Part shown: positions 4,823-44,356 of the stretch, in pieces | How positions within the stretch are numbered: the first letter of the stretch is position 1 | How the letters are laid out: each line of letters opens with the position of its first letter | From: an uncultured PS1 clade bacterium | Lineage (GTDB): Bacteria > Pseudomonadota > Alphaproteobacteria > MED-G09 | Direction of reading: 5' to 3' | Length of the DNA: 64,000 bases | Assembly: GCA_902626605.1 (NCBI GenBank) | Contig: CACOFZ010000005.1 | Span: 9,373 to 73,372, forward strand | Made by a program: the position numbers and the translations under genes | The notes under the pieces: model-generated | Seen by the model: the letters and a program-made list of their open reading frames with translations, nothing else | Told to the model about the DNA's origin: nothing | The model's database searches: none

Positions 4823-6130
4823 TTGACTATGAAAGCAGGTTCTTTTTTTCCAAGTTTAAAATATTCTTCGCTCTTCGCAATGGCTGGAGACGATTGTTCA
4901 CTTTTTTTTGATCTTGAAAATCTTACTGAAAAGCAAAAAGAAGATCATCTAACAAATGTAGAGCTTACAGCAATGTTACAAATTGCACTTACATGTATTG
5001 GTAACTCGCATGATCATTTAGCAGTTTATGATGCTTATAAAAGCCCTGAATGGAATAGAATTCTTTTGCGTTATCATGATTTTTATAAACGCCTTGTTGA
5101 CCAGGTAATACCTTTGGAAAACTATAGTTATCATCCTAAGTTTAATTTTTATGATTCTGTTGCTAAATACGTAAATCAAAATAAAGGTTTTGTAGATGTT
5201 GTAAATTTATATATGACAAGTGGATCAAATGCTGTGATACACAAAAACGAGGAATTACTAAGGATCAATAGAAATGTAAATTCAAAGAAACATTTTGCTG
5301 AGAACGCACCCAGTTTTGGAATTCCTACCCCAGATACGATGGTTGTTAACAAATCAGAACTTGAAAGTAAAAAAGTAAGTGATTTCTTCTTAAAGTATAA
5401 CAACAAAATAATTTTAAAACTTCTAGGTTTAGCTGGATCAAGAAATGTAGCTGCTGTAAATAGTGTTAGAGAGGCAAGCCTTTATGTAGATGAGTATGAT
5501 GATAGGATGATAATCTTACTTCAAGAAAAACTTGATTTAGAAAATTTTACAGAAATGACTGTTGATCTATGCATAAGTGATGAAGATATAAAAATCGCTA
5601 ATACAAGAAAGATTCTTTTTGCGGATGGTCTTTGGGTTGGAAATCTTATATCAGAGTCGGTTAAAGTATCTCCTGAGCATAAAGAAATATTAATTAAGGT
5701 TGGAGAGTATGCTCGTTATCATGGCTATGTTAGTCCTGAAGGGAGTAATTGTGGAATAGATTTTTTTATAGGAAAAAATGGAGAGATCTCGATTACTGAA
5801 ATAAATGCTCGCTGGACTGGGGGACTATTTCCAGCTGAAATTTTAGCTCAAATAAATAATAAAAGAGATGCAATACCTTTCTTTGACATAGTGCCTATAG
5901 AAAAAAAAGATTTATATGTTGATTTTATTGATAAATATTTAGTTGGAGAATTCGAAGGCGACTTTGCCATATTACCAATTGGTTTTGGTTGTTTTCCAGT
6001 TCCTATAGAGGGAAGGGATTACTTTTATACTTGGCAAGCAGCGATTGGTGATCTAAACGCTTTCAAACAAAAGAAAAATAGTGAATTGGGTAATGATGTT
6101 ATGCCTACATCCGATAAAATAGTGCTTTAA
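4823..6130 (+). CDS. ATP-grasp domain protein (PGM1-like peptide ligase type, with an N-terminal pre-ATP-grasp region)
   Basis: C-terminal half carries ATP-grasp features (ILKLLGLAGSRNV, ITEINARWTGG). The ATG at 4829 is a more likely start than TTG at 4823. Confidence 0.6.
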   Translation: MTMKAGSFFPSLKYSSLFAMAGDDCSLFFDLENLTEKQKEDHLTNVELTAMLQIALTCIGNSHDHLAVYDAYKSPEWNRILLRYHDFYKRLVDQVIPLENYSYHPKFNFYDSVAKYVNQNKGFVDVVNLYMTSGSNAVIHKNEELLRINRNVNSKKHFAENAPSFGIPTPDTMVVNKSELESKKVSDFFLKYNNKIILKLLGLAGSRNVAAVNSVREASLYVDEYDDRMIILLQEKLDLENFTEMTVDLCISDEDIKIANTRKILFADGLWVGNLISESVKVSPEHKEILIKVGEYARYHGYVSPEGSNCGIDFFIGKNGEISITEINARWTGGLFPAEILAQINNKRDAIPFFDIVPIEKKDLYVDFIDKYLVGEFEGDFAILPIGFGCFPVPIEGRDYFYTWQAAIGDLNAFKQKKNSELGNDVMPTSDKIVL

Positions 6131-11836: not shown

Positions 11837-11913
<77 letters not shown>

Positions 11914-34260: not shown

Positions 34261-35613
34261 ATGAGTAAAAAAAATATAGCTATAATACTTGCTGCTGGCA
34301 AGGGTTCTAGAATGAACTCTAATATTCCTAAGCCTTTGCATAAAATTGCTGGTAAAACTATAATTGAACATATTTTACATAATATAAATGACGCTGGTTA
34401 CGATGAGGCAATCATTGTTCTAAATAAAGAAAATGAAAGTTTCTTTAAGTTCTTAAAGAAGAATAATTCCTCTTTAACTTTTGCGTTTCAAGAAAATCAA
34501 TTAGGAACTGGTGATGCCGTTAAAGAGGGCGTTAGGGATATTGATCTTTCGTCTGTTGAAAATGTATTAGTTGTATTTGGTGATACACCTCTATTATCAT
34601 CAAAAACATTAAGAAATTTAATTAATATTAATGACAACAATGATATTACTGTCCTGGGGTTTGAAACAAGCAATCCAGGAAGATATGGAAGACTTTTGGT
34701 AAAAGATAACAAGCTTTTTAAAATAGTTGAGGCATTGGATGCTACTGAGGATGAGCAAAAAATAACATTATGTAATGGTGGGATAATGATTATAAAAGCT
34801 GATCGCATTAAAGGAAATCTTGATCTTTTAAAAAATAATAATGCAAAAAAAGAATTTATTCTATCTGATCTAATTGAAATTAATAATAATACTGGTGGTG
34901 TTTCATCCTATGTAGAGTGCGATCATGAAGAAACAATAGGTATTGATAGTAAAAAAGGCTTAAGTAAAGCTGAAAAAATTTATCAAAACAAACTTAGAGA
35001 TAAATTTATGGAGGCTGGTGTAACAATTTTAGACCCTGAGACAGTATTTTTCTCTCATGATACTAGGATTGGAAAAGATGTTGAGATAGGTTCCAATATT
35101 GTTTTTGGAGAAAATGTATTAATAAGAGATAATGTTGTAATAAAATCATTCTGTTCGATTGAAAATTCAATTATCAATGATGGAGTCTCTATAGGACCTT
35201 TTGCAAGGTTGAGAAATAATGCTGATATTGGTCAAGACTCAAAGATAGGAAATTTTGTAGAAGTTAAAAATTCCAAACTTGAGCAAGAAGTTAAGGTAAG
35301 CCATCTATCTTATATTGGTGATGCTGAAATTGATGAGTCTGTAAATATTGGAGCTGGAACAATTACTTGTAATTTTGATGGATTAAATAAACATAAAACA
35401 ACTATTGGTAAAAGAGCATTTATAGGCTCAAACTCATCTTTGATAGCGCCTATTAATATTGGTAATGATGCAAATGTTGCGGCAGGATCCTCTATTTCAA
35501 AAGATGTGGATTCTAACTCTCTAGCAATAACAAGAGCTCCAATAAGATTTATAAGTAATTGGTCTAAAAAATTAAAAAAAAATAATAAAAAGGAAGAGCA
35601 ATGTGTGGAATAA
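34261..35613 (+). CDS. glmU: Bifunctional UDP-N-acetylglucosamine pyrophosphorylase / GlcN-1-P acetyltransferase
   Basis: ILAAGKGSRM N-terminus, left-handed beta-helix hexapeptide C-terminus, adjacent to glmS. Confidence 0.95.
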   Translation: MSKKNIAIILAAGKGSRMNSNIPKPLHKIAGKTIIEHILHNINDAGYDEAIIVLNKENESFFKFLKKNNSSLTFAFQENQLGTGDAVKEGVRDIDLSSVENVLVVFGDTPLLSSKTLRNLININDNNDITVLGFETSNPGRYGRLLVKDNKLFKIVEALDATEDEQKITLCNGGIMIIKADRIKGNLDLLKNNNAKKEFILSDLIEINNNTGGVSSYVECDHEETIGIDSKKGLSKAEKIYQNKLRDKFMEAGVTILDPETVFFSHDTRIGKDVEIGSNIVFGENVLIRDNVVIKSFCSIENSIINDGVSIGPFARLRNNADIGQDSKIGNFVEVKNSKLEQEVKVSHLSYIGDAEIDESVNIGAGTITCNFDGLNKHKTTIGKRAFIGSNSSLIAPINIGNDANVAAGSSISKDVDSNSLAITRAPIRFISNWSKKLKKNNKKEEQCVE

Positions 35614-37430
35614 TCGGTTTAGTGAGTAAAAAAGAGGTTTCTTCTACCTTACTGGAAGGATTAAAGAGACTTGAGTACAGGGGTTATGACTCTTCAGGTA
35701 TAGCAACAATTAGTAATGAAAAAATAGAAAGAGTAAGATCAAAAGGTAATTTAAGTTTTTTGGAAGAAAAACTTTTAAATTCATCTTTACCAGGGAATAT
35801 AGGCATTGGTCATACTCGTTGGGCTACTCATGGTTCACCAGAAGAAAAAAATGCTCATCCTCACATTACTGATAAAGTTGCAGTTGTTCATAACGGTATT
35901 ATAGAAAATAATAATCAACTTAGAAATCAATTAATTGAGGCAGGTGTCGAATTCTCTAGTGATACCGATACAGAGGTAGTTTGTCATATTATTACTTCAT
36001 ACCTTAACACAGGATTAAGCGCTTATGACTCTATAAGGGCAACTATGAGTGATGTAAGGGGTACCTATGCATTTGGTGTTTTAATATTAAATGAACCTAA
36101 TAAATTATTTGCTGTTAGAGGGGGGAGTCCTCTTGCAATAGGTTCAGCCAACAATGAAAATTTTATTGGTTCGGATACTTATTCTTTAAGTGCTTATTCA
36201 GATAACATTACTTATTTAAAAGATGGTGATGTGGCTGAAATTGAAAATGATTCTTATCGTATATTTGATCATTCTAACTCTTTGGTTGAAAGAGAAAAGC
36301 AGAGTATTATTGAGAGTATTACCTTATCTGAAAAAGGTATTTTTAAACATTTTATGCTTAAAGAAATTCATGAACAACCAGAAGTTATTGCTAAGTCATT
36401 ATCAAATTATATTGATATGGATAATGGTGTTTTAAATATTCCAAATTTACCCCATGATCTTTCCACTATCACCAATGTTACATTAGTTGCTTGTGGAAGT
36501 TCTTATTATGCTGGTTTAATAGCCAGAGATTGGTTTGAGAAATTTACTAATATTAAGGTTGATGTTGAGATAGCTTCCGAGTTTAGATATCGAGAAGCCC
36601 CAATGGCTTCAAATGGATTAACAATTTTTATATCTCAATCTGGTGAAACCGCTGATACACTTGCGGCTTTAAAACATTGTAAGTATTTAGGCCAGAAGAC
36701 AATATCTATTGTTAATGTTGGTGATTCATCAATGTGCAGAAATTCAGATGCATCTCTTAAAATTTATGCTGGTCCTGAGATTGGAGTTGCTTCTACAAAG
36801 GCTTTTACTTGTCAGCTTGGTGTCTTAGCTTGTTTAGCAATAAAAATTGGTACTTCAAATGGATCTCTCTCAGAATATCAAGAAAAAGAATATGTTAAAT
36901 CTCTTCTATCTGTTCCTAGATTAATTTCTAATACTTTAGACAAAGAGGATGAAATTAAAAATTTAGCTCATGATCTTTCAAATATTACAACAACCTTATA
37001 CCTTGGAAGGGGGCAAATGTACCCCGTTGCTATGGAGGGTGCACTAAAATTAAAAGAAATTTCTTATGTTCATGCAGAGGGATATCCTGCTGGAGAAATG
37101 AAGCATGGACCTATTGCATTATTAGAAAAAGATTTACCAGTATTCATAATGTCTCCTAGTAATAATTTATATGAGAAGACAGTTTCAAATCTCAATGAAG
37201 TAATTGCTAGAGATGCATCCGTTATCCTTTTTACTGATAAAGAGGGATTAGATAATATTGGTTTATTAAAAAATAAAATCAAAGCTTTTGTTTTAGATAA
37301 AAGCGACATTATTTCTGCTCCTTTTATATACACTATTCCTAATCAATTAATTGCTTACTACATCGCTCTTTTGAAAGGGACTGATGTTGATCAGCCCAGA
37401 AATTTAGCTAAGTCTGTTACTGTGGAGTAA
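35601..37430 (+). CDS. glmS: Glutamine--fructose-6-phosphate aminotransferase
   Basis: MCGIIG N-terminus, two SIS domains, C-terminal DQPRNLAKSVTVE. Confidence 0.97.
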   Translation: MCGIIGLVSKKEVSSTLLEGLKRLEYRGYDSSGIATISNEKIERVRSKGNLSFLEEKLLNSSLPGNIGIGHTRWATHGSPEEKNAHPHITDKVAVVHNGIIENNNQLRNQLIEAGVEFSSDTDTEVVCHIITSYLNTGLSAYDSIRATMSDVRGTYAFGVLILNEPNKLFAVRGGSPLAIGSANNENFIGSDTYSLSAYSDNITYLKDGDVAEIENDSYRIFDHSNSLVEREKQSIIESITLSEKGIFKHFMLKEIHEQPEVIAKSLSNYIDMDNGVLNIPNLPHDLSTITNVTLVACGSSYYAGLIARDWFEKFTNIKVDVEIASEFRYREAPMASNGLTIFISQSGETADTLAALKHCKYLGQKTISIVNVGDSSMCRNSDASLKIYAGPEIGVASTKAFTCQLGVLACLAIKIGTSNGSLSEYQEKEYVKSLLSVPRLISNTLDKEDEIKNLAHDLSNITTTLYLGRGQMYPVAMEGALKLKEISYVHAEGYPAGEMKHGPIALLEKDLPVFIMSPSNNLYEKTVSNLNEVIARDASVILFTDKEGLDNIGLLKNKIKAFVLDKSDIISAPFIYTIPNQLIAYYIALLKGTDVDQPRNLAKSVTVE

Positions 37431-37439
37431 TTTAGAACA

Positions 37440-37826
37440 GTGAATAACAAAATAGATGATTGCATATTTTGTTCCATACCCAGAGACAGGATCATCTCAG
37501 AAAACGATCTTACATTCGCCATAAGAGATAACTATCCTGTTACGACGCTTCATTCTTTAATAATTCCAAAAAGACATGTTGCAGACTATTTTTCCTTAAC
37601 TAAAGATGAATTGCTCTCCTGCGATGCTTTGTTAAAAGAGATTAAAAACTCTATACAAGCCGAAGATGAGTCTGTGAAAGCTTTTAACGTTGGTATAAAT
37701 TCTGGGGAAACAGCGGGGCAGACAATATTTCATTGTCATATACATTTAATTCCCAGAAGGGTTGGTGATGTCAAGAATCCTAGGGGGGGGATAAGGCATC
37801 TCATACCAGGTAAGGGTGATTATTAG
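37440..37826 (+). CDS. HIT (histidine triad) family protein
   Basis: CIFC N-terminal motif, histidine triad HCHIHLIPRR, C-terminal PRGGIRHLIPGKG. GTG start 9 nt after the glmS stop. Confidence 0.85.
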   Translation: MNNKIDDCIFCSIPRDRIISENDLTFAIRDNYPVTTLHSLIIPKRHVADYFSLTKDELLSCDALLKEIKNSIQAEDESVKAFNVGINSGETAGQTIFHCHIHLIPRRVGDVKNPRGGIRHLIPGKGDY

Positions 37827-38828
37827 GTGACTGACTTCAAGGACGAAGATTATTGGCGATCAATAATTCTTTATGGGCTAAACCAAGCTACATACAAAAT
37901 TGCTCTAGGGAAAACTTTAGTTTCTCTCTCAGAAAAAAATATAAATCATGTTCCGTGGGATACGTTGTCACTAGAGTTCTTGGAACAGTATAAAAAAAGA
38001 TTAAATGTCGAAGAACCAATGCCTCAGCAAGCAAACCCTTCAAGAAGAACATTTATGGAAAGAGCAGTTAGGAAATTAGATCTAGGCACTACGGATATAG
38101 ACGAAACGATATTTAATGTAGGAAAAGAAGGCTTCAATGATGTAATAAGAAGATTCCATAACATAGCAAAATTTTCAGATTTTCAGGGCAAGTTCTACAC
38201 TTATGATTTTGGAAAATCAATAACGCTTACAGACAATCTCCATAATGTTGTTGAACAACACAACAAGGATATTTCTGCTGAGCTTGATTCAAGATGGGCT
38301 TTGTTAGAAGGGGCTTTTACAATAAAATCTGATAATTATGAGTTAGCAAATGATATTCTTGATACCTATGCGCTTAAGGGAGAAAGAAGAAAGGATTTAA
38401 CTCCCAATATTCCATTTTTACAGGGTTATCAGGGTAATAGTTGTTTTTACTGTGCTGAAAAGATTGAAGAAGGAGATTGCCATGTTGATCACGTATTGCC
38501 AAAAAAGGTGCTTCAACATAATCAAATATGGAATTTAGTATTAGCACACAGTTATTGTAATATGAGTAAATCTGATAAGGTTGTTGGAAACCACTTTATG
38601 GAAAAATTAATACAACGAAATGAGAACATCATGGGCAGCAATCATCCTTGGAAGCACAAAATATCATCAGATCTTGGAAGAACAAAAAAATTGAGAGCAT
38701 CGAATTTGCTGACACATTATGAGAACGTTAAAGTTGTGCTCGGTAAAAACTATTGGTTCGGGACAAGTTCGTATAACCCACAAAATGATGACTTTTATAA
38801 GAAATTGATCACAAGACTTAATAATTAA
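37827..38828 (+). CDS. HNH endonuclease with an unrecognised N-terminal domain of about 200 aa
   Basis: CFYCAEKIEEGDCHVDHVLPKKVLQHNQIWNLVLAHSYCNMSKSDK (CxxC, HxDH, N, CN..K). The GTG start directly abuts the HIT stop codon. Confidence 0.85.
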   Translation: MTDFKDEDYWRSIILYGLNQATYKIALGKTLVSLSEKNINHVPWDTLSLEFLEQYKKRLNVEEPMPQQANPSRRTFMERAVRKLDLGTTDIDETIFNVGKEGFNDVIRRFHNIAKFSDFQGKFYTYDFGKSITLTDNLHNVVEQHNKDISAELDSRWALLEGAFTIKSDNYELANDILDTYALKGERRKDLTPNIPFLQGYQGNSCFYCAEKIEEGDCHVDHVLPKKVLQHNQIWNLVLAHSYCNMSKSDKVVGNHFMEKLIQRNENIMGSNHPWKHKISSDLGRTKKLRASNLLTHYENVKVVLGKNYWFGTSSYNPQNDDFYKKLITRLNN

Positions 38829-38878
38829 TAATGAAGATAGCGATTGAACTGTTAGCAACCTTATTCACTTTTCTAAAA

Positions 38879-38920
38879 CACTCCGTTACGGTAGAGTAGT
38901 TTGTTATTTGTATTCGGTAA
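38879..38920 (+). repeat. Intergenic cassette-boundary element, copy 1 (core ACGGTAGAGTAG at 38888-38899)
   Basis: Shares the 11-nt core and flanking similarity (CACTCCGTTACGGTAGAGTAGTTT) with copies 2-4. Confidence 0.85.
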
Positions 38921-39029
38921 AACTTTTGAGGGAAATAATTTACTTGCAAGCACTAAAATAGGAATATCTAATGACTAATAGAATATGACTAATAATTTAT
39001 TTTGGGCTATCTTAAAAAAAGGATTAAAA

Positions 39030-39383
39030 ATGAAAAAATTTACTATTTTTGTGTCTGCAATATTCGTCTTTTATTTTTTTATAAATCAAACAAATGCTGA
39101 AATAACTAGTAAAGAATTATTGTTAGATGTTTTTGATGGATGCGTCAATTCAGAAGAAACTGACAAAGATATAGCTAATAATACTATATCTGCAGGAAAT
39201 TTAATTTCTTATTGCGGATGTACGGTAAAAGAAATATCAAAATCAATGACGACAAAAGAACTTGCATCTCTTGGTATTGAAGTCATGAAATCAAAAACCA
39301 AGGAACAAGAAGATGAAATATTTTATGCTAATAAAAAATTTACATCTGCTGTAACAGAATGTATTGAGGAAATGTATGATTAA
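39030..39383 (+). CDS. Small exported Cys-containing protein (cassette ORF 1)
   Basis: Signal peptide MKKFTIFVSAIFVFYFFINQTNA from the ATG at 39030 (AGGA upstream). The track start at 38985 is less likely. Confidence 0.6.
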   Translation: MKKFTIFVSAIFVFYFFINQTNAEITSKELLLDVFDGCVNSEETDKDIANNTISAGNLISYCGCTVKEISKSMTTKELASLGIEVMKSKTKEQEDEIFYANKKFTSAVTECIEEMYD

Positions 39384-39485
39384 CCCAATACGAATTATAA
39401 ACAACTCAGTAACGGTAGAGTAGTTTATAACCGTTACTCAGTAATTTTTCTTCTCAAATCCTAAATTTCGACTTATTATAATTAG
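39381..39485 (+). repeat. Intergenic cassette-boundary element, copy 2 (core at 39412-39423), about 105 nt, with a 9-bp hairpin
   Basis: Left block TAACCCAATACGAATTATAAACAACTC and right block TTTCTTCTCAAATCCTAAATTTCGACTTATTATAAT both recur in copy 4. Stem AGTAACGGT (39408-39416) / ACCGTTACT (39430-39438). Confidence 0.9.
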
Positions 39486-39842
39486 ATGAAAAAATTACTT
39501 TTTATATTTTTAATAGCTTTCTTTTCAACTCCATCATTACTAGGCTCTGATACTATATCTCATTCAAGCTGGTTAATTTCTCAGAGTAATGGACATGAAA
39601 CTACTTTTTTTTTTAATCTAGATGGAACTTGTTCTTATTTTCAAAACACCTCTCCATCAGGAAATGAAAAAGCTATCTTTGATGAATGCACATGGATTCA
39701 AAATGACAAGTTATTATTTTTTGAAACAACTAATCACTTTGCTATTTTTGTTGGATTTATAAAAGATAATAAAATTATTGGTTCATCCTTTTCAAATTAT
39801 TATGACTCACCTCATACTTTCGAAGGTATAAAAATAAATTGA
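39486..39842 (+). CDS. Small exported protein (cassette ORF 2)
   Basis: Signal peptide MKKLLFIFLIAFFSTPSLLG; no motif recognised. Confidence 0.6.
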   Translation: MKKLLFIFLIAFFSTPSLLGSDTISHSSWLISQSNGHETTFFFNLDGTCSYFQNTSPSGNEKAIFDECTWIQNDKLLFFETTNHFAIFVGFIKDNKIIGSSFSNYYDSPHTFEGIKIN

Positions 39843-39851
39843 ATGAAAAAA

Positions 39852-39885
39852 TTCGGTTACGGTAGAGTAATTTATAACCGTCATT
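39852..39885 (+). repeat. Intergenic cassette-boundary element, copy 3 (core ACGGTAGAGTAA at 39859-39870)
   Basis: TTCGGTTACGGTAGAGTAATTTATAACCGTCATT aligns with the centre of copy 2. Confidence 0.85.
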
Positions 39886-39935
39886 AACTTATAATTTATG
39901 CTATCAAAATTTAATTTTTAATTTATTTTAACCAG

Positions 39936-40307
39936 ATGAAAAAAATAATTGTTGAAGGGTTTGATATTTCAAAACAAAATCTAAAGGGAATGTCTCCTGA
40001 GGAGTATATAATCTTAATGAAATTTCAAAAATTTGCCTGCCCATTAAGCGGAAAAAAATTTGAATACTCTAAACATCAACAAAAATTTATAGATATTGAA
40101 GGAAGACTTACACGACAACAAGCTCCACCCGTTGATCACGATCATAATACTGGATATATTAGAGGAATTTTAAGTGAAAAATTGAATTTATTATTAGATC
40201 AGTGGGAAAAAAATACTTATGGATATCTATCAAAACCACCTCAATTATCGAGATACCAAAACAATCCTCCCGCCTTTCAATGTATTGGTAAAATTATGTA
40301 TAAATGA
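39936..40307 (+). CDS. Endonuclease VII-like (HNH-related) protein lacking most zinc-ligand cysteines (cassette ORF 3)
   Basis: PPVDHDHNTGYIRGIL matches the VDHDH.TG.(V/I)RG(L/I)L core of the recombination endonuclease VII family. The expected flanking CxxC pairs read CPLS and SEKL. Confidence 0.6.
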   Translation: MKKIIVEGFDISKQNLKGMSPEEYIILMKFQKFACPLSGKKFEYSKHQQKFIDIEGRLTRQQAPPVDHDHNTGYIRGILSEKLNLLLDQWEKNTYGYLSKPPQLSRYQNNPPAFQCIGKIMYK

Positions 40308-40334
40308 TATTAAATTATTTATAAGTAATTTGAT

Positions 40335-40437
40335 TAACCAAATACGAATCATAAGCAACTCCTAAACGGTAGAGTAAATAAATAAATTGATTAAAAAATT
40401 TCTATTCATATCCTAAATTTAGATTTATCATAATATA
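40335..40437 (+). repeat. Intergenic cassette-boundary element, copy 4 (core at 40366-40377), running into the KAS III start codon
   Basis: Left and right blocks align with copy 2; the centre (second hairpin arm) is not conserved. Confidence 0.9.
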
Positions 40438-41568
40438 ATGGAAAATATTGTAATTAGCGGTACTGGTGTTTTTACACCAAATGAATCTATAACGAACAAA
40501 GAACTTGTTAAATCATATAATACTTATGCTAAAAATTTTAATTTAGAATTTAAAAGTGAAATAGAGTCAGGCAAAACACTTGCCTTAGAACTATCAAATG
40601 AGGAATTTATTTTTAATGCCTCAGGTATTAAAAATAGATATGTAATGGATAAGAAGGGTATTCTTAATCCAAAGATAATGCATCCAATTTTAGATAAAAG
40701 AAGTAATGATGAGCCATCAATTCTTGCTGAAATGTCATTAAAAGCCTCTAAACAAGCTCTAGATGAAGCGGGCAAGACCCCTGAAGAAATTGATGCTGTT
40801 ATAACAGCGTGTTCAAACCTTGAAAGAGCATATCCTGCTATATCAATAGAGGTGCAAGATTTATTAGGTATTAAAGGATTTGCTTTTGATATGAATGTTG
40901 CATGCTCATCTGCTACATTTGCCATTCAAGCAGCAGCTGATATGATCCGATCAGGAAGCGCAAATACTATTTTAATAGTAGATCCAGAAATTTGTTCGGG
41001 CCATTTAGACTTTAAAGATCGTGACTGTCATTTTATTTTTGGTGACGTATGCACGGCGATGATTCTTGAGAAGAGGGATACAGCTAATTCAAATAATTGC
41101 TTTGAAATAATTTCGACCAAATGCATAACGCAATTTTCTAATAACATAAGAAATAATTTTGGTTTTCTTAATAATGCAAAAAAATCTTCTCCATTGGATA
41201 GAGATTTATTATTTATGCAGGAGGGTAGAAAGGTTTTTAAAGAGGTTGTTCCAATGGTAAGCCAATTAATAATTGACCATCTTAATGAAGAAAAAATTGA
41301 AATTGAGGAAATTAAGAGATTATGGCTTCATCAAGCAAATAAGAGTATGAATGATTTTATTGGAAAAAAAGTTTTAGGTCGGGTTCCAAAAGAAGATGAA
41401 CAGCCTAATATATTGCAAGATTATGCAAACACGTCTTCAGCAGGTTCCATAGTAGCTTTTTCTTTATATAGTCAGGATATGAAAAGCAATGAAGTAGGTG
41501 TTTTATGTTCTTTTGGAGCAGGATATTCAGCTGGAAGCATAATTCTTAAAAAATTGAAAAAAACGTAG
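40438..41568 (+). CDS. Beta-ketoacyl-ACP synthase III family protein (long FabH-like form)
   Basis: Cys-His-Asn triad contexts NVACSSATFAI, WLHQANKSMN and ANTSSAGSI. Confidence 0.88.
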   Translation: MENIVISGTGVFTPNESITNKELVKSYNTYAKNFNLEFKSEIESGKTLALELSNEEFIFNASGIKNRYVMDKKGILNPKIMHPILDKRSNDEPSILAEMSLKASKQALDEAGKTPEEIDAVITACSNLERAYPAISIEVQDLLGIKGFAFDMNVACSSATFAIQAAADMIRSGSANTILIVDPEICSGHLDFKDRDCHFIFGDVCTAMILEKRDTANSNNCFEIISTKCITQFSNNIRNNFGFLNNAKKSSPLDRDLLFMQEGRKVFKEVVPMVSQLIIDHLNEEKIEIEEIKRLWLHQANKSMNDFIGKKVLGRVPKEDEQPNILQDYANTSSAGSIVAFSLYSQDMKSNEVGVLCSFGAGYSAGSIILKKLKKT

Positions 41569-41632
41569 TTAAATAATTGATAAAATTAATATTACCTATA
41601 TTGTTAATAATAATTAATTAGAGGTAAAATTA

Positions 41633-42163
41633 ATGAAACTTAAAAATATAATTCTGTGTTTAATGTTATTTTTTACAACAAATTTAATTGCTGAAGATAA
41701 CTCGATTGGTGATGTAAATTTAGGCAAAACTGAACAAAGTAAAGCATTTATTCAAATGAAAAGGATGCTAGGCGAGTGGAACGGCAAGCTTTATCAAGAA
41801 TCTGGAGCTGTTGTAGAGACTTATTCAAAGTTCCGTCTCGTATCAAATGGAAATTCTATTGTCGAAACCCTAATTGAAGATGGAGTAGAAATGATGACTA
41901 CTTATTCTGATAAAGATGGAGAGTTAGTTATAAAACATTACTGCGCGCTAGGAACAGAGCCGATGTTCGTTGTTTCATCTTTAGATGAAAATTCTATTCA
42001 ACTCATGTCTGATCCATCACCAGGTTATCATCCAGACAAACACAATTTTGTTAAAACAATGGGGTGGACATTTACTGATAATGACGCCGTGAGAGTTGAT
42101 GCAACTTTACATATTGATGGTGAGTTACAGACTCAATACTCAATAATCGAACGAGTAAATTAA
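41633..42163 (+). CDS. Exported hypothetical protein
   Basis: Signal peptide ending NLIAEDN; no motif recognised. Confidence 0.55.
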   Translation: MKLKNIILCLMLFFTTNLIAEDNSIGDVNLGKTEQSKAFIQMKRMLGEWNGKLYQESGAVVETYSKFRLVSNGNSIVETLIEDGVEMMTTYSDKDGELVIKHYCALGTEPMFVVSSLDENSIQLMSDPSPGYHPDKHNFVKTMGWTFTDNDAVRVDATLHIDGELQTQYSIIERVN

Positions 42164-42222
42164 AAAAATAATTTTCTCGAGCAAATATTGTTTTTTTGGT
42201 TAATTAAATTTTATAAATTAGT

Positions 42223-43284
42223 ATGAGATTTTTATTTCTATTACTACTATTTTTTTCTTTTAATGTTTATGGCAATAGCCAAAACTATATTTTTGGTTGG
42301 ACACAATTAAACAATCCAGATCTTTTTTCTCCTAGAGGTGGGACATCAACTGGACCTGATGTTGATTTAGAAAAAGCCCCTAATCCTTTTTGGCTGAAGT
42401 TACAAAATACAAATTTAAATAAATTTGAGAGAGATAGACTGGCTATTCTGGCAATGCAGGGTGAATATAAAGTTAATTTTGATTTTATGGAGACTATGGG
42501 TTTTGTTGAAAATTATATTCCTCAAAAACCATATCAATCCTGGGGTACAGAATTTGTAACTGTTATTAAAGACGAAAATGATTTTATTAGTCTTCAGCAT
42601 ATTATGGTTATGTTTTTTGAGGAAGAGGATGGAAGTATTTCTGATCCTATTGTTGTAAAGCATTGGAGACAAGATTGGAAGTATGAGGATAAATCAATAA
42701 ATACTTATATTGGTGATGATACCTGGGAAAAAAATAGTATTCCTATGGATAAAAGAAAAGGAACATGGTCTCAGTTTGTTTATCAGGTTGATGACTCACC
42801 TAGATACGAGGGTTTTGGAAAATGGAAACATTTTTCAAACTCATCAATATGGTCAAGTTATGAAACGTCAAGACCTCTTCCTAGAAGAGAAAAGACAATA
42901 AGAAATGATTACGACTTTATAAGAGGCACTAATATTCACACTATTACTCCAAATGGATGGGTTCATGAGCAAAATAATAGTAAAGTAACTAAAAAGAATT
43001 TTATTTTAGCAAGAGAAATTGGTCTAGCAAGATATCAAAGAATTAAGAATTTTGATTGGTCAGCTGGAGAAATTTATTGGAAAAAGACTGAGGAATTTTG
43101 GCGAGAGGTCAGAGAAGTCTGGACTAGAGAAATTGAAAATTCAAAAAAGATTAAAGTTAGTCAAAATACTAATGATGATATTTTATTTATAAGATTATTT
43201 GAATTGGCTGAGGAATATAAGAATGGAAACCTTCAATCTTTGAGCAAGATAGATGCAATAATTAACGAACACATTTATAAGTGA
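42223..43284 (+). CDS. Exported hypothetical protein (Trp-rich)
   Basis: Signal peptide; long ORF; no motif recognised. Confidence 0.55.
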   Translation: MRFLFLLLLFFSFNVYGNSQNYIFGWTQLNNPDLFSPRGGTSTGPDVDLEKAPNPFWLKLQNTNLNKFERDRLAILAMQGEYKVNFDFMETMGFVENYIPQKPYQSWGTEFVTVIKDENDFISLQHIMVMFFEEEDGSISDPIVVKHWRQDWKYEDKSINTYIGDDTWEKNSIPMDKRKGTWSQFVYQVDDSPRYEGFGKWKHFSNSSIWSSYETSRPLPRREKTIRNDYDFIRGTNIHTITPNGWVHEQNNSKVTKKNFILAREIGLARYQRIKNFDWSAGEIYWKKTEEFWREVREVWTREIENSKKIKVSQNTNDDILFIRLFELAEEYKNGNLQSLSKIDAIINEHIYK

Positions 43285-43291
43285 TTTTTAT

Positions 43292-44356
43292 ATGAGGAAT
43301 ATGAAATTTTTAAAATTCTTTTTTATTTTCTTATTCGTTTTTTTTATTTTTTTATTTTTTTTATTTCAGTCTAATAATTTTCAAAACTCGATAGTAAAAT
43401 TAGGAATTAAAAATTTAGTCCTACCAAGTTCTATTTTTCCAGAATATGACGCACTATCAGCACTTGTATGTGGATCAAAATCACCTCTTGCTCATCCTAC
43501 AAGGGCCGAAACCTGTATTTTAATAAAAGCAGGGGACAAATATTTTATTTTTGATGTTGGCGATAAAAGCGTAAGTAATTTAATGAATTGGAGGATTCCA
43601 TTAGATAAGCTTGAGTATGTATTTATTTCTCATCTACATATTGATCATTATTCGGATATTGAAGATCTCCATATGTGGAGTTGGGTTGGCATGAATAGAG
43701 ATTCAAAGCTAATGGTTTATGGTCCAGATGGTATTAAAGAGGTTTTAGGAAAGATAGAGGATGCATCGCAAATTGATTATAGATACAGAAATGAGCACCA
43801 TGGGGACAATTTTGCTCCACTGGATATTGCAGGCTTTGATGCTAAAATTATTCAGGAATTTAATGTTCCTATTTATGATAAAGATCAAATTAAAATTTCA
43901 GCTTTTCCAGTCAATCATCATCCAATAGATCCTTCTCTAGGTTTTAAGATAGAGTATAAAAATAGAAGCATAGTCATTAGTGGTGATACTATTTATTCTG
44001 AAAATGTTTTAAAGGCGTCAAAAAATGTCGATGTTCTATTTCATGAGGCAATGTCAACGGAAATTTTAAATATGCTTTATGAAGTATTACCAACTGATAG
44101 TCTCAGTAGAGTTGGGATCAAAGACGTACAAAATTACCATACAGAGGCAATTGACGCTGCAAGGTTAGCAAAAAAAGCAAATGTTCAACATTTGATATTA
44201 TATCATCTTCTTCCAGCACCGAGAAATTACTTATTGGAAAATATTTTTGTCAGGGGTTTAAAAGAAGAATTTAAAAATTTTACATTATCGAATGATGGAA
44301 CTATTGTTTTTTTACCAACTAATTCGAAAGAAATAATAGTTAGAGAAATTAAATAA
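43292..44356 (+). CDS. MBL-fold metallo-hydrolase with an N-terminal TM/signal segment
   Basis: SHLHIDHYSD (HxHxDH) and a later LYHL motif. Confidence 0.8.
   Translation: MRNMKFLKFFFIFLFVFFIFLFFLFQSNNFQNSIVKLGIKNLVLPSSIFPEYDALSALVCGSKSPLAHPTRAETCILIKAGDKYFIFDVGDKSVSNLMNWRIPLDKLEYVFISHLHIDHYSDIEDLHMWSWVGMNRDSKLMVYGPDGIKEVLGKIEDASQIDYRYRNEHHGDNFAPLDIAGFDAKIIQEFNVPIYDKDQIKISAFPVNHHPIDPSLGFKIEYKNRSIVISGDTIYSENVLKASKNVDVLFHEAMSTEILNMLYEVLPTDSLSRVGIKDVQNYHTEAIDAARLAKKANVQHLILYHLLPAPRNYLLENIFVRGLKEEFKNFTLSNDGTIVFLPTNSKEIIVREIK

Follow-up and report, generated by a model that had tools for sequence, protein, structure and literature searches.

How the interval between glmS and a KAS III gene in a PS1/OCS116-clade alphaproteobacterium came to carry four copies of one short repeat, with small genes set between them, is the question raised by this locus. 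In the window (the whole 64-kb stretch of DNA analysed here) the 11-mer ACGGTAGAGTA occurs four times, always on the + strand (38888, 39412, 39859 and 40366; spacings of 524, 447 and 507 nt), against 0.15 occurrences expected, and none of 100 shuffled sequences reached four. This recount agrees with the first-pass annotation, which had also placed the motif nowhere else in the window; a synonymous variant, ACTGTGGAGTA, is however found at the end of glmS itself (37419-37429). The 11-mer corresponds to positions 7-17 of an 18-nt core, TCNGTNACNGTNGARTAR, which codes for S-V-T-V-E-stop, the 3' end of glmS, and the gene in the window ends in a synonymous version of this core (TCTGTTACTGTGGAGTAA, 37413-37430). 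All four repeats represent displaced copies of the terminal 18 bases of glmS, an essential gene; what has been duplicated is this 3' end, and not the region upstream of KAS III that had been proposed as the target.

Core copies 1-3 translate as S-V-T-V-E-stop with differences at synonymous sites only, and they also match the true glmS ends and post-stop sequence of the relatives L002-L005. A search with the degenerate pattern GTNACNGTNGARTAR, allowing at most one mismatch, gave five matches in the window (0.53 expected), four of them being the glmS end and copies 1-3 and the remaining one (5745) a near-match due to chance; copy 4 has degenerated too far to be recovered in this way. Among 25 displaced copies, positions 7-18 vary almost solely at third codon positions and positions 1-4 include non-synonymous changes. 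Moreover, C at position 3 is present in 18 of 23 displaced copies versus 6 of 27 real glmS ends (duplicate sites removed). Across the window and about 40 related loci the core was seen downstream of glmS only and on the + strand only, the near-match at 5745 being the exception in the window, and the suspicion that the motif might be a generic dispersed repeat is not borne out.

It seems extremely improbable that the repeat is no more than a terminator or regulatory hairpin which is conserved and has been copied from spacer to spacer, or that it was left behind by Tn7-like insertions at attTn7. Such an origin would suit the position downstream of glmS and the hairpin at copy 2, which is followed by a T-rich run, but a promoter and terminator scan of the locus gave nothing above shuffles, Rfam returned no known RNA family at the repeat, and the repeat comprises 15 in-frame coding nucleotides (five codons) plus the stop codon. 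Tn7 inserts about 23 bp past the stop codon with a 5-bp duplication and tnsABCD, whereas the units described here have an 18-nt core and a junction at a Thr codon within the coding sequence; neither the 5-bp duplication nor tnsABC, tnsD or Tn7-type ends were found between glmS and KAS III in the window and related loci. The location had been called the classical hot spot downstream of glmS. This is correct for the address, as both systems use the conserved C-terminal coding sequence of glmS as a safe broad-host-range site, but not for the Tn7 features or the place of the junction.

When the displaced cores are taken as boundaries, the interval between the glmS stop codon and KAS III consists of four cassettes (Table 1) and not three as first counted, since the HIT + HNH segment (37431-38881) directly behind glmS is also a cassette. 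The single ORFs reported for the three intervals between repeats were all recovered, and the third is indeed endonuclease VII-like. Core copy 1 is a hybrid site, to which cassette 1 supplies the left arm and cassette 2 the right arm. In L037 the cassette next to glmS encodes a homologue of c1 (89% at the amino acid level) and has the same 3' arm. The c3 protein is identical on contigs L089-L091. The c2 stop codon lies 10 nt ahead of the next core and no recognisable left arm was found for cassette 3; the c3 arms are weak in inverted-repeat scoring. Both c1 and c2 have hydrophobic N-termini, for which signal peptides are plausible.

Table 1. Features of the glmS-KAS III region (window positions).
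Feature	Position	Strand	Remarks
glmS, platform	35601..37430	+	Pfam SIS + GATase domains; GlmS 86-94% identical to PS1/OCS116 genomes
Resident attachment core (last 18 nt of glmS)	37413-37430	+	TCTGTTACTGTGGAGTAA, S V T V E stop
Probable exchange dinucleotide AC in resident core	37419-37420	+	Comparative mapping
Cassette 1, HIT + HNH endonuclease	37431..38881	+	Pfam HIT, HNH_4
HIT gene, cassette 1	37440-37826	+	
HNH endonuclease gene, cassette 1	37827-38828	+	
Beta-type inverted arms, cassette 1	37431-37448 and 38859-38881		24 nt, 88% complementary; TIR score 17
Displaced core copy 1	38882..38899	+	TCCGTTACGGTAGAGTAG
Cassette 2, c1	38900..39405	+	c1 ORF 39030-39383, putative secreted protein
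Alpha'-type arms, cassette 2	38900-38923 and 39377-39405		TIR score 16
Displaced core copy 2	39406-39423	+	Within 39406..39485
Alpha right arm after core copy 2	39424-39444	+	
srd 3'-end remnant after core copy 2	39445-39485	+	
Cassette 3, c2	39486..39852	+	c2 ORF 39486-39842, putative secreted protein; TIR score 8
Displaced core copy 3	39853-39870	+	TCGGTTACGGTAGAGTAA; alpha right arm 39871-39888
Cassette 4, c3, endonuclease VII-like	39889..40359	+	ORF 39936-40307; Pfam Endonuclease_7, E=1.4e-6
Alpha'-type left arm, cassette 4	40331-40359	+	
Displaced core copy 4 (oldest, degenerate)	40360-40377	+	TCCTAAACGGTAGAGTAA
srd 3' remnant / native KAS III upstream region	40394-40437	+	
KAS III (FabH-like), conserved distal border of hot spot	40438..41568	+	Pfam ACP_syn_III; synteny with L001-L006, L024 and others

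Copies 2 and 4 were described as similar over about 105 nt, in accordance with our repeat alignments (77 nt at 73% and 62 nt at 69%). The left block of this similarity is the upstream cassette's terminal inverted arm; its supposed start on the stop codon fits copy 2 only, as in copy 4 it begins 24 nt after the stop. The right block is a remnant of the 3' end of srd, a small gene located between glmS and KAS III in many relatives. The left block was also considered as a degenerate longer piece of glmS coding sequence, a reading rejected because the block matches the post-stop arm in reverse complement.

The order glmS...KAS III is kept in about 30 relatives, and the content in between ranges from 97 nt (L031) up to about 6 kb, with one to three or more extra cores, all on the + strand, bounding the cassettes; part of this evidence consists of metagenome assemblies, which repeats can mis-join. 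Five displaced cores are present at the SAR86 locus L007. Cassettes with esterase, DUF6632, GFA, NnrU and c1 recur among the relatives in differing positions and combinations. The contigs L089-L091 are 99% identical to the window without c1 and c2, the junction lying within the core, and L089 has an additional cassette upstream of HIT+HNH. Cassette number and content thus vary while the repeat persists, which supports the earlier proposal of repeated, integron-like, site-specific insertion of co-oriented cassettes with duplication of the target, and a local tandem duplication including the coding sequence is refuted as an explanation. In the second variable region, from KAS III to a methyltransferase, no repeat system was found.

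One cassette is shared by distantly related hosts. Positions 37382-38898 of the window, including HIT+HNH at the glmS end, are 86.8% identical to L083 over 1518 nt, whereas the two GlmS proteins are only 43.8% identical and the glmS of L083 has no nucleotide-level similarity to that of the window beyond the last ~50 nt. The HIT+HNH cassette is also found in L089 and in L087, a Pseudohongiellaceae gammaproteobacterium. Its presence in three distant lineages demonstrates transfer of cassettes across phyla. The conserved C-terminus of GlmS in the bacterial lineages compared may allow the same cassettes to enter unrelated bacteria.

These data also bear on the idea that no dedicated machinery exists, and that homologous or illegitimate recombination anchored in glmS and KAS III produced the repeated ends as by-products of unequal crossing-over. 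Some events could be read in this way: the c1+c2 difference between the window and L089 and the L083/L084 junction in cacTCC could both be simple recombination between short direct repeats, and real glmS ends, such as that of L050, show allele shuffling. However, a cassette with 87% identity occupies the same nucleotide position despite glmS similarity limited to the last ~50 nt, a homology so short and imperfect that it is a poor RecA substrate, and the cassette-specific inverted arms and constant exchange point are left unexplained. We regard recombination without dedicated machinery as quite unlikely.

HIT+HNH, a cassette seen in five contexts, was used to map the exchange point. In the upstream core the right part (TGTGGAGTAR) travels with the cassette, as does the left part (TCC[G/A]T[T/A]) in the downstream core, and the other core halves follow the context. 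Across all sites W6 is linked to the left arm and N9/N12 to the right arm, linkage statistics that do not represent independent events because many of the compared sites share ancestry. The dyad axis of the arms falls on A7|C8. This mapping places the exchange between core positions 6 and 9, probably at the invariant AC of the Thr codon (positions 7-8), with junctions within the glmS coding sequence, 10-11 nt ahead of the final stop-codon base. The L083/L084 presence/absence comparison is discordant, its junction lying left of core position 4 and not at AC.

The partition of the core weighs against non-autonomous transposons of a MITE- or casposon-like kind, in which a transposase or casposase would recognise the terminal inverted repeats and the 18-nt repeat would be a target-site duplication. 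A duplication would derive from the target, but half of each core moves with the cassette between hosts, and in two hosts 3-4 of the 18 positions differ between the cores flanking HIT+HNH, which are hence not copies of one target. It is true that every unit has terminal inverted repeats and a flanking direct repeat, that a recombinase is absent nearby, as for MITEs, and that casposons likewise target 3' ends of conserved genes, with duplications of 14-15 bp (PMC4046053). Nevertheless, no transposase, Cas1 or PolB was found, and we deem such transposons quite unlikely, although a version with a 2-bp 'AC duplication' is indistinguishable from a serine-recombinase crossover.

The two ends of a cassette pair with each other as inverted repeats, with a mean score of 12.5 for cognate ends compared with 8.65 for non-cognate (p=3e-6) and 6.9 for shuffled ends (p=1e-11). 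If two adjacent cassettes have arms of one family, the site between them folds into a ~55-nt palindrome, with energies of -13 to -16 kcal/mol and z-scores of -4 to -5. In the window itself the hairpin noted earlier at copy 2 exists (-8.2 kcal/mol, z=-2.0), and the other sites fold no better than shuffles. In sequence the arms fall into several unrelated families, a diversity not easily reconciled with one sequence-specific recombinase.

Two further explanations draw on these palindromes. In the first, an HUH/Y1 enzyme (IS200/IS605, relaxase or Rep type) would nick the arm hairpin 3' of TTAC/TAAC and insert single-stranded circular cassettes. Full sites are strong hairpins with GTWAC|N at the apex, the arms vary in sequence with complementarity kept, and exchange falls 3' of T(T/A)AC, a tetranucleotide also targeted by IS608. 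Against this route, which appears very unlikely, are the poor folding of the window sites other than copy 2, the fact that IS200/IS605 ends are not mutual inverted repeats, and the lack of any HUH or TnpA gene among those seen. In the second, the array would be the remnant of a chromosomal integron, a CALIN (a cluster of attC sites without integrase). Like integrons and CALINs, the glmS arrays possess one fixed point by a platform, small co-oriented and strain-variable cassettes, mostly of one or two genes and none with its own recombinase, and an imperfect palindrome at each cassette's 3' end. As the first-pass annotation had stated, however, the repeat is apparently not of the attC kind, the R''/R' consensus (RYYYAAC...GTTRRRY) being absent from 25 sites by inspection, and no intI was found near any array. 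Exchange maps to the apex of the palindrome, on the dyad axis, instead of to its base, and the place of the 'attI' is taken by the coding end of an essential gene, which the cassette must restore. A CALIN is consequently highly improbable.

No recombinase or transposase was found in any cassette or within 8-10 kb of the arrays in four lineages, so the suggested search for an enzyme gave no candidate there. The negative result covers Pfam, NCBIfam and PADLOC searches of window genes 37440-44356 and about 30 cassette genes of relatives, the remaining ORF translations of the window, read by eye, and the called genes around the arrays in L023-L027 and L083-L088. The only match of large-serine-recombinase type was srd, an 85-aa protein with a weak PF07508 hit (E=8e-7). 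Its identity as a decayed large serine recombinase is weakened by its relatives, almost all of which are small proteins; srd had no sequence match in PDB, and a model fold search was not significant (Bxb1 chains, E about 1.5-4). Three DNA patterns and two protein queries matched no cassette in viral contigs, plasmid BLAST returned solely an irrelevant HIT-motif match from Bacillus, and no circular or free cassette form was seen.

Taken together, we consider it likely that an array of four small recombinase-less mobile cassettes makes up the stretch between the glmS stop and KAS III, the cassettes having been inserted site-specifically as circles by a recombinase acting in trans. Each cassette would once have been a circle with one imperfectly palindromic att site (left arm, 18-nt core, right arm), whose core mimics the last 18 nt of glmS. 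The recombinase would act conservatively, swapping strands of the cassette core with those of the resident glmS end at the AC of the Thr codon or immediately beside it, and the cassette's own N-GTN-GAR-stop would complete glmS and leave the essential gene intact. After insertion, direct repeats of the core would flank the cassette, its ends would be mutual inverted repeats, and the former glmS end would be shifted downstream as a displaced copy. Repeated insertions, together with core x core recombination by which internal units are lost or gained, may then have generated strain-specific arrays. A serine recombinase with a 2-bp crossover would fit, as would a tyrosine recombinase with a single strand exchange resolved by replication.

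More tentatively, the arrays might represent a previously undescribed broad-host-range cassette system of bacterioplankton, in which an enzyme unlinked to the array, possibly a common host enzyme, inserts at the glmS end; a literature search found no paper on cassette arrays at the glmS 3' end, which is no proof of absence. If so, it would be an 'integron without an integrase', giving Alphaproteobacteria, Gammaproteobacteria and PVC-type bacteria a single safe site at which to share genes for defence and niche functions. Given the abundance of restriction-modification and nuclease genes in the cargo, the glmS-end site is probably an exchangeable defence slot. Classical mobile elements are few in streamlined marine bacteria such as PS1 and SAR86, yet their strains vary greatly in gene content, and the locus offers a concrete, sequence-defined route of gene entry, with an 18-nt address common to the unrelated lineages compared and cassettes with recognisable ends. 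If the enzyme needs just a short conserved target, it could serve as a gene-insertion tool for uncultured or genetically intractable bacteria.

Several known systems resemble these arrays in part. Staphylococcal SCC and SCCmec elements insert at the 3' end of rlmH (orfX) and are mobilised by large serine recombinases (CcrAB/CcrC) that some of the units encode. SCC and pseudo-SCC elements, like the glmS arrays, lie inside the 3' end of a housekeeping gene that is kept functional. SCC also shares target-end direct repeats, terminal inverted repeats, tandem arrays including recombinase-less units, and a cargo that includes restriction-modification genes. The units of the glmS arrays are far smaller (0.45-5 kb, 1-3 genes), their hosts are several phyla of marine plankton, and no large serine recombinase (Resolvase + Recombinase + zinc ribbon) was found on them. 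For the crossover dinucleotide on the dyad axis, a property of the SCC type, comparative mapping points to AC, with L083/L084 in disagreement. The CIMEs at the fda 3' end of Streptococcus thermophilus (ICESt1/ICESt3) are integrase-less and presumably moved in trans by the integrase of a related element. They share with the glmS cassettes the lack of an integrase, flanking att repeats from a housekeeping 3' end and tandem arrays, but the cassettes are much smaller, their host range crosses phyla, and no helper element was found. With regard to Xer-dependent integrative elements (IMEX) and pdif modules, which use a dif-like 28-bp site with XerC and XerD arms, no likeness to the E. coli-type dif consensus was apparent by eye, a consensus that may not be that of these lineages.

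Additive flexible genomic islands of marine bacteria are built of cassettes beside tRNA or tmRNA genes, with the tRNA 3' end repeated behind every cassette (PMC4898812, PMC10872708). Additive and tycheposon-type islands have in common with the glmS arrays a fixed hot spot, strain-specific cassette combinations, a target 3'-end repeat after each cassette and near-identical cassettes in divergent hosts. The differences are a protein-coding target, codon-level constraint on the repeats, inverted arms and no associated integrase. The glmS array agrees with the published definition of these islands (PMC4898812) in all but the usual tRNA/tmRNA target, and the window's two tRNA genes, at 11837 and 23461, are uninvolved in the array.

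The 11-mer ACGGTAGAGTA occurs four times in the window, always on the + strand, and a single ORF lies in each of the three intervals between the copies, the third being endonuclease VII-like by its match to Pfam Endonuclease_7. The motif is expected 0.15 times (dinucleotide-preserving shuffles; 0/100 reach four copies). A repeat search also recovers the likeness of copies 2 and 4 across ~105 nt, and the arrangement described in the first-pass annotation is therefore present in the sequence. The same search also links the copies to the glmS end, at 37410-37448; over 39 nt, this segment and copy 3 share 79% identity. Because the copies match the glmS end in frame (see table), the 11-mer is part of an 18-nt core, TCNGTNACNGTNGARTAR, in which it spans positions 7-17. 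When the pattern GTNACNGTNGARTAR is searched with at most one mismatch, the window gives five matches against 0.53 expected, namely the glmS end, copies 1-3 and a chance near-match at 5745. In the related loci L002-L005 the real glmS ends read TCNGTRACGGTAGAGTAG, then TTTATAACCGTTATTCGGTAAAAAC, and the window's displaced copies, downstream flank included, are the same as this real glmS-end sequence. Reading the copies as a terminator repeat is contradicted by at least one of the features tested. A near-match to the core, TATGTAACGGTGGAATAA, is conserved inside glmU at many PS1 loci, probably as a chance feature of the coding sequence.

GlmS shares 86-94% identity with proteins of single-cell genomes and MAGs that carry the labels OCS116, PS1 clade, Rhodobiaceae or MED-G09, and a metagenome scan contributed ~30 further loci. 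The comparative evidence comes largely from metagenome contigs and related sequences, and its counts do not represent independent events. The synteny of glmS and KAS III is kept everywhere among the compared loci, while the intervening DNA varies. Extra cores, always on the + strand, are found between the two genes in L023, L033, L037 (three), L038, L039, L042, L046, L047, L050, L051, L053, L054 and L077, and in a SAR86 single-cell genome (L007) the genome's own glmS end recurs in five displaced copies, all within 9 kb. Six PS1 metagenome contigs (L029, L032, L034, L040, L043 and L045) end in, just after or no more than a few hundred bases past the glmS end, consistent with assembly breakage at a repeat that is hypervariable at the population level.

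The anatomy of the cassettes was derived from a table of 53 sites. Every unit is bounded by the core as a direct repeat, and the stretches immediately following the upstream core and immediately preceding the downstream core are reverse complements of each other. These arms fall into the families alpha, alpha' and beta, and SAR86 and L077 have additional types. When cognate ends are aligned locally, the mean score is 12.5 (n=23), against 8.65 for non-cognate ends (p=3e-6 vs cognate) and 6.9 for shuffled ends (p=1e-11). Displaced sites are hybrid, with the left arm from the upstream cassette and the right arm from the downstream one. The 'left block' shared by copies 2 and 4 is real, but it had been taken for part of an intergenic element; given the arm complementarity at cassette ends, it is the inverted arm of the upstream cassette. 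Pairs of same-family arms are predicted to fold into a palindrome of ~55 nt (-13 to -16 kcal/mol, z -4 to -5); sites in the window, which are hybrid or decayed, fold weakly. In the SAR86 genome, the same >70-nt conserved sequence (tcttaacccaccc...cattctgcggggg...) follows three displaced cores, and a related motif flanks the type III restriction cassette of L077, a PS1-type contig. The arms of that cassette are of SAR86 type.

Features of the glmS-end arrays and of related loci (positions without a locus handle refer to the window)
Feature	Locus	Position	Sequence or remark
glmS end, in frame	window		TCT GTT ACT GTG GAG TAA (S V T V E stop)
Copy 1, in frame	window	11-mer at 38888	TCC GTT ACG GTA GAG TAG
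Copy 2, in frame	window	11-mer at 39412	TCA GTA ACG GTA GAG TAG
Copy 3, in frame	window	11-mer at 39859	TCG GTT ACG GTA GAG TAA
Copy 4, in frame	window	11-mer at 40366	TCC TAA ACG GTA GAG TAA (decayed)
Arm family alpha			tttataACCGTTATTCGGTAA
Arm family alpha'			tttataGTTCGTATTCGGTAA
Arm family beta			ttcagaACAGTGAATAA
HIT+HNH beta arms	window	37431-37448 and 38859-38881	24 nt, 88% complementary
c1 alpha' arms	window	38900-38923 and 39377-39405	
c2 arms	window		no left arm
c3 arms	window		weak
Core upstream of HIT+HNH	five contexts		context half TCTGTT / TCAGTG / TCCGTC / TCAGTC; fixed AC; cassette half TGTGGAGTAR, constant
Core downstream of HIT+HNH	five contexts		cassette half TCC[G/A]T[T/A], near-constant, 5' of AC; fixed AC; context half GGTAGAGTAG / GGTAGAGTAA / GGTGGAGTAA / TGTCGAGTAG / TGTGGAGTAA
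srd remnants	window	39445-39485 and 40394-40437	
srd	L002	11890-12090	
srd	L024	10001-10324	
srd	L023	10001-10258	
Conserved post-core sequence	L007	12971-13040, 15186-15255, 20489-20558	
173-aa cassette	L083	9057-9675	
Site lacking the 173-aa cassette	L084	9057-9074	
glmS-KAS III spacing	L031		97 nt
glmS-KAS III spacing	L002, L004, L024		about 310 nt
glmS-KAS III spacing	L006, L033		up to about 6 kb
HNH+HIT pair, non-glmS island	L097	8001-10490	
HNH+HIT pair, non-glmS island	L098	8001-9373	
c3 homologue in lpx operon	L092	3054-3425	
c3 homologue in lpx operon	L093	6001-6372	
Core near-match in glmU	L005	9169	
Core near-match in glmU	L006	2164	
Core near-match in glmU	L030	9169	also at other loci

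In displaced cores, variation within 7-18 is confined almost entirely to third codon positions, and non-synonymous changes are found at positions 1-4; C occupies position 3 in 18/23 displaced copies vs 6/27 real ends. The codon-level constraint at 7-18, and not at 1-4, therefore indicates that the right part of the core once worked as a glmS end and the left part did not. Across sites, W6 tracks the family of the left arm (A 7/0 for alpha-left; T 6/2 for beta-left). N9 and N12 track the right arm (alpha: G 14/15 and A 15/15; beta: T/C 13/15 and G 13/15) and show no linkage to the left one. The clearest case is the HIT+HNH cassette, compared in five contexts: the halves of its cores are split between cassette and context, and hence the comparison maps the exchange to the invariant AC, between positions 6 and 9. 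These AC bases are also where the inverted arms (...AAACNACTC / GAGTNGTTT...) have their dyad axis. An exchange point at AC inside the core rules out an 18-bp target-site duplication, and a transposon/duplication model is contradicted by at least one tested feature. One discordant pair was found: the 173-aa cassette of L083 is absent from L084-L086, and the L083/L084 junction lies left of core position 4, not at AC, which may reflect a plain deletion between repeats.

We suggest that a circular cassette with a single palindromic site would recombine, conservatively and site-specifically, with the resident glmS end. The observations fit such conservative recombination, from which we infer both the circle and the enzyme. 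A serine recombinase would be expected to give a crossover of this kind, restricted to the AC on the dyad axis and joining partners that differ at W6/N9. A tyrosine recombinase, with a single strand exchange resolved by replication in the style of integrons or CTX phage, would give a sharp junction too, and an HUH enzyme nicking the hairpin may be an alternative. No integrase, transposase, Cas1 or HUH gene was found in any cassette or in the 8-10 kb around the arrays examined, and none was seen when the window's ORF translations were read by eye (not a formal scan). An integron or CALIN reading is contradicted by at least one tested feature, as is a Tn7 reading.

The sole mobility-flavoured gene is srd, with a weak match to PF07508 (Pfam Recombinase). 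It encodes a conserved helix-turn-helix protein of 83-107 aa with 293 close homologues, and its relatives are nearly all small proteins. The predicted structure consists of three helices (85 aa, pLDDT 75.6) and gave no significant structural match. The gene lies between glmS and KAS III in L002, L024-L028, L036, L040, L051 and L023; in many PS1 genomes it immediately follows glmS, and alpha-type cassettes (L023, L051) have it as their first gene. Its frame stays open when extended backwards across arm and core. In the window srd persists only as two remnants; the 'right block' of copies 2 and 4 survives as a shared sequence, with its identity revised to a remnant of the srd 3' end.

Several cassettes occupy different positions in different arrays. 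For instance, in L037 c1 (89% aa) comes first after glmS, and in the window second, behind HIT+HNH, and cassette order varies among loci (esterase, DUF6632, GFA and NnrU recur). In L089-L091, three mutually independent contigs that share 99% identity with the window, HIT+HNH is directly followed by c3, without the 943 nt carrying c1 and c2. The core at this junction combines the left part of copy 1 with the right part of copy 3, and in L089 a different cassette precedes HIT+HNH. Window 37382-38898, which runs from the glmS end to the next core, is 86.8% identical to L083 over 1518 nt; the GlmS proteins of the two are only 43.8% identical. Among the genes of L083 are PSCyt2, PSD1 and DUF1501, typical of Planctomycetota and Verrucomicrobiota. 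A third HIT+HNH copy (83% aa) is situated between two cores in L087, a Pseudohongiellaceae gammaproteobacterium. Turnover by homologous recombination only is contradicted by at least one tested feature.

The cargo comprises restriction-modification and nuclease genes (Dcm and HaeII in L023; an Eco57I-like methylase and a PLD nuclease in L053; type III in L077; SRA-HNH in L033; HNH and a C5 methylase in L007; HIT+HNH in the window), small transporters or membrane proteins (SMR, MerC, DoxX, NnrU) and others (esterase, GFA, phosphatase). Outside the glmS context, the HNH+HIT pair occurs in reversed order (HNH then HIT) in Citrifermentans and Pontibacter (55-57% aa), in islands where resolvases, transposases and further nucleases are also present, pointing to a two-gene module of defence type. 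Homologues of c3 (70-75% identical) are wedged in the lpx operon of SAR11 (Pelagibacter), where start and stop codons overlap and glmS-type cores are absent; this looks like a free-standing selfish nuclease gene. Cargo genes therefore use other routes too.

Functionally, the glmS-end array belongs to the additive flexible genomic islands (PMC4898812, PMC10872708). In mechanism it comes closest to the SCC arrays at rlmH and to the cassette arrays of integrons. Unlike in additive islands, SCC and integron arrays, however, the target is a protein-coding end restored by the cassette, the cassettes are very small, the arrays have no linked recombinase and the same cassettes are found in distant phyla. 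The literature searched contained no description of glmS-3'-end cassette arrays.

A second variable region extends from KAS III to a SAM methyltransferase gene (41569-44356), and a search of it for direct or inverted repeat systems gave none. In the window its genes encode a 176-aa protein, DUF6607 and an MBL-fold protein; L005 has DUF6607 alone, and L001, L024 and L002 have other content. A TonB-dependent-receptor-like ORF at 82-2472 contains several long histidine/acidic repeats (HHDEDEHHDEDE...).
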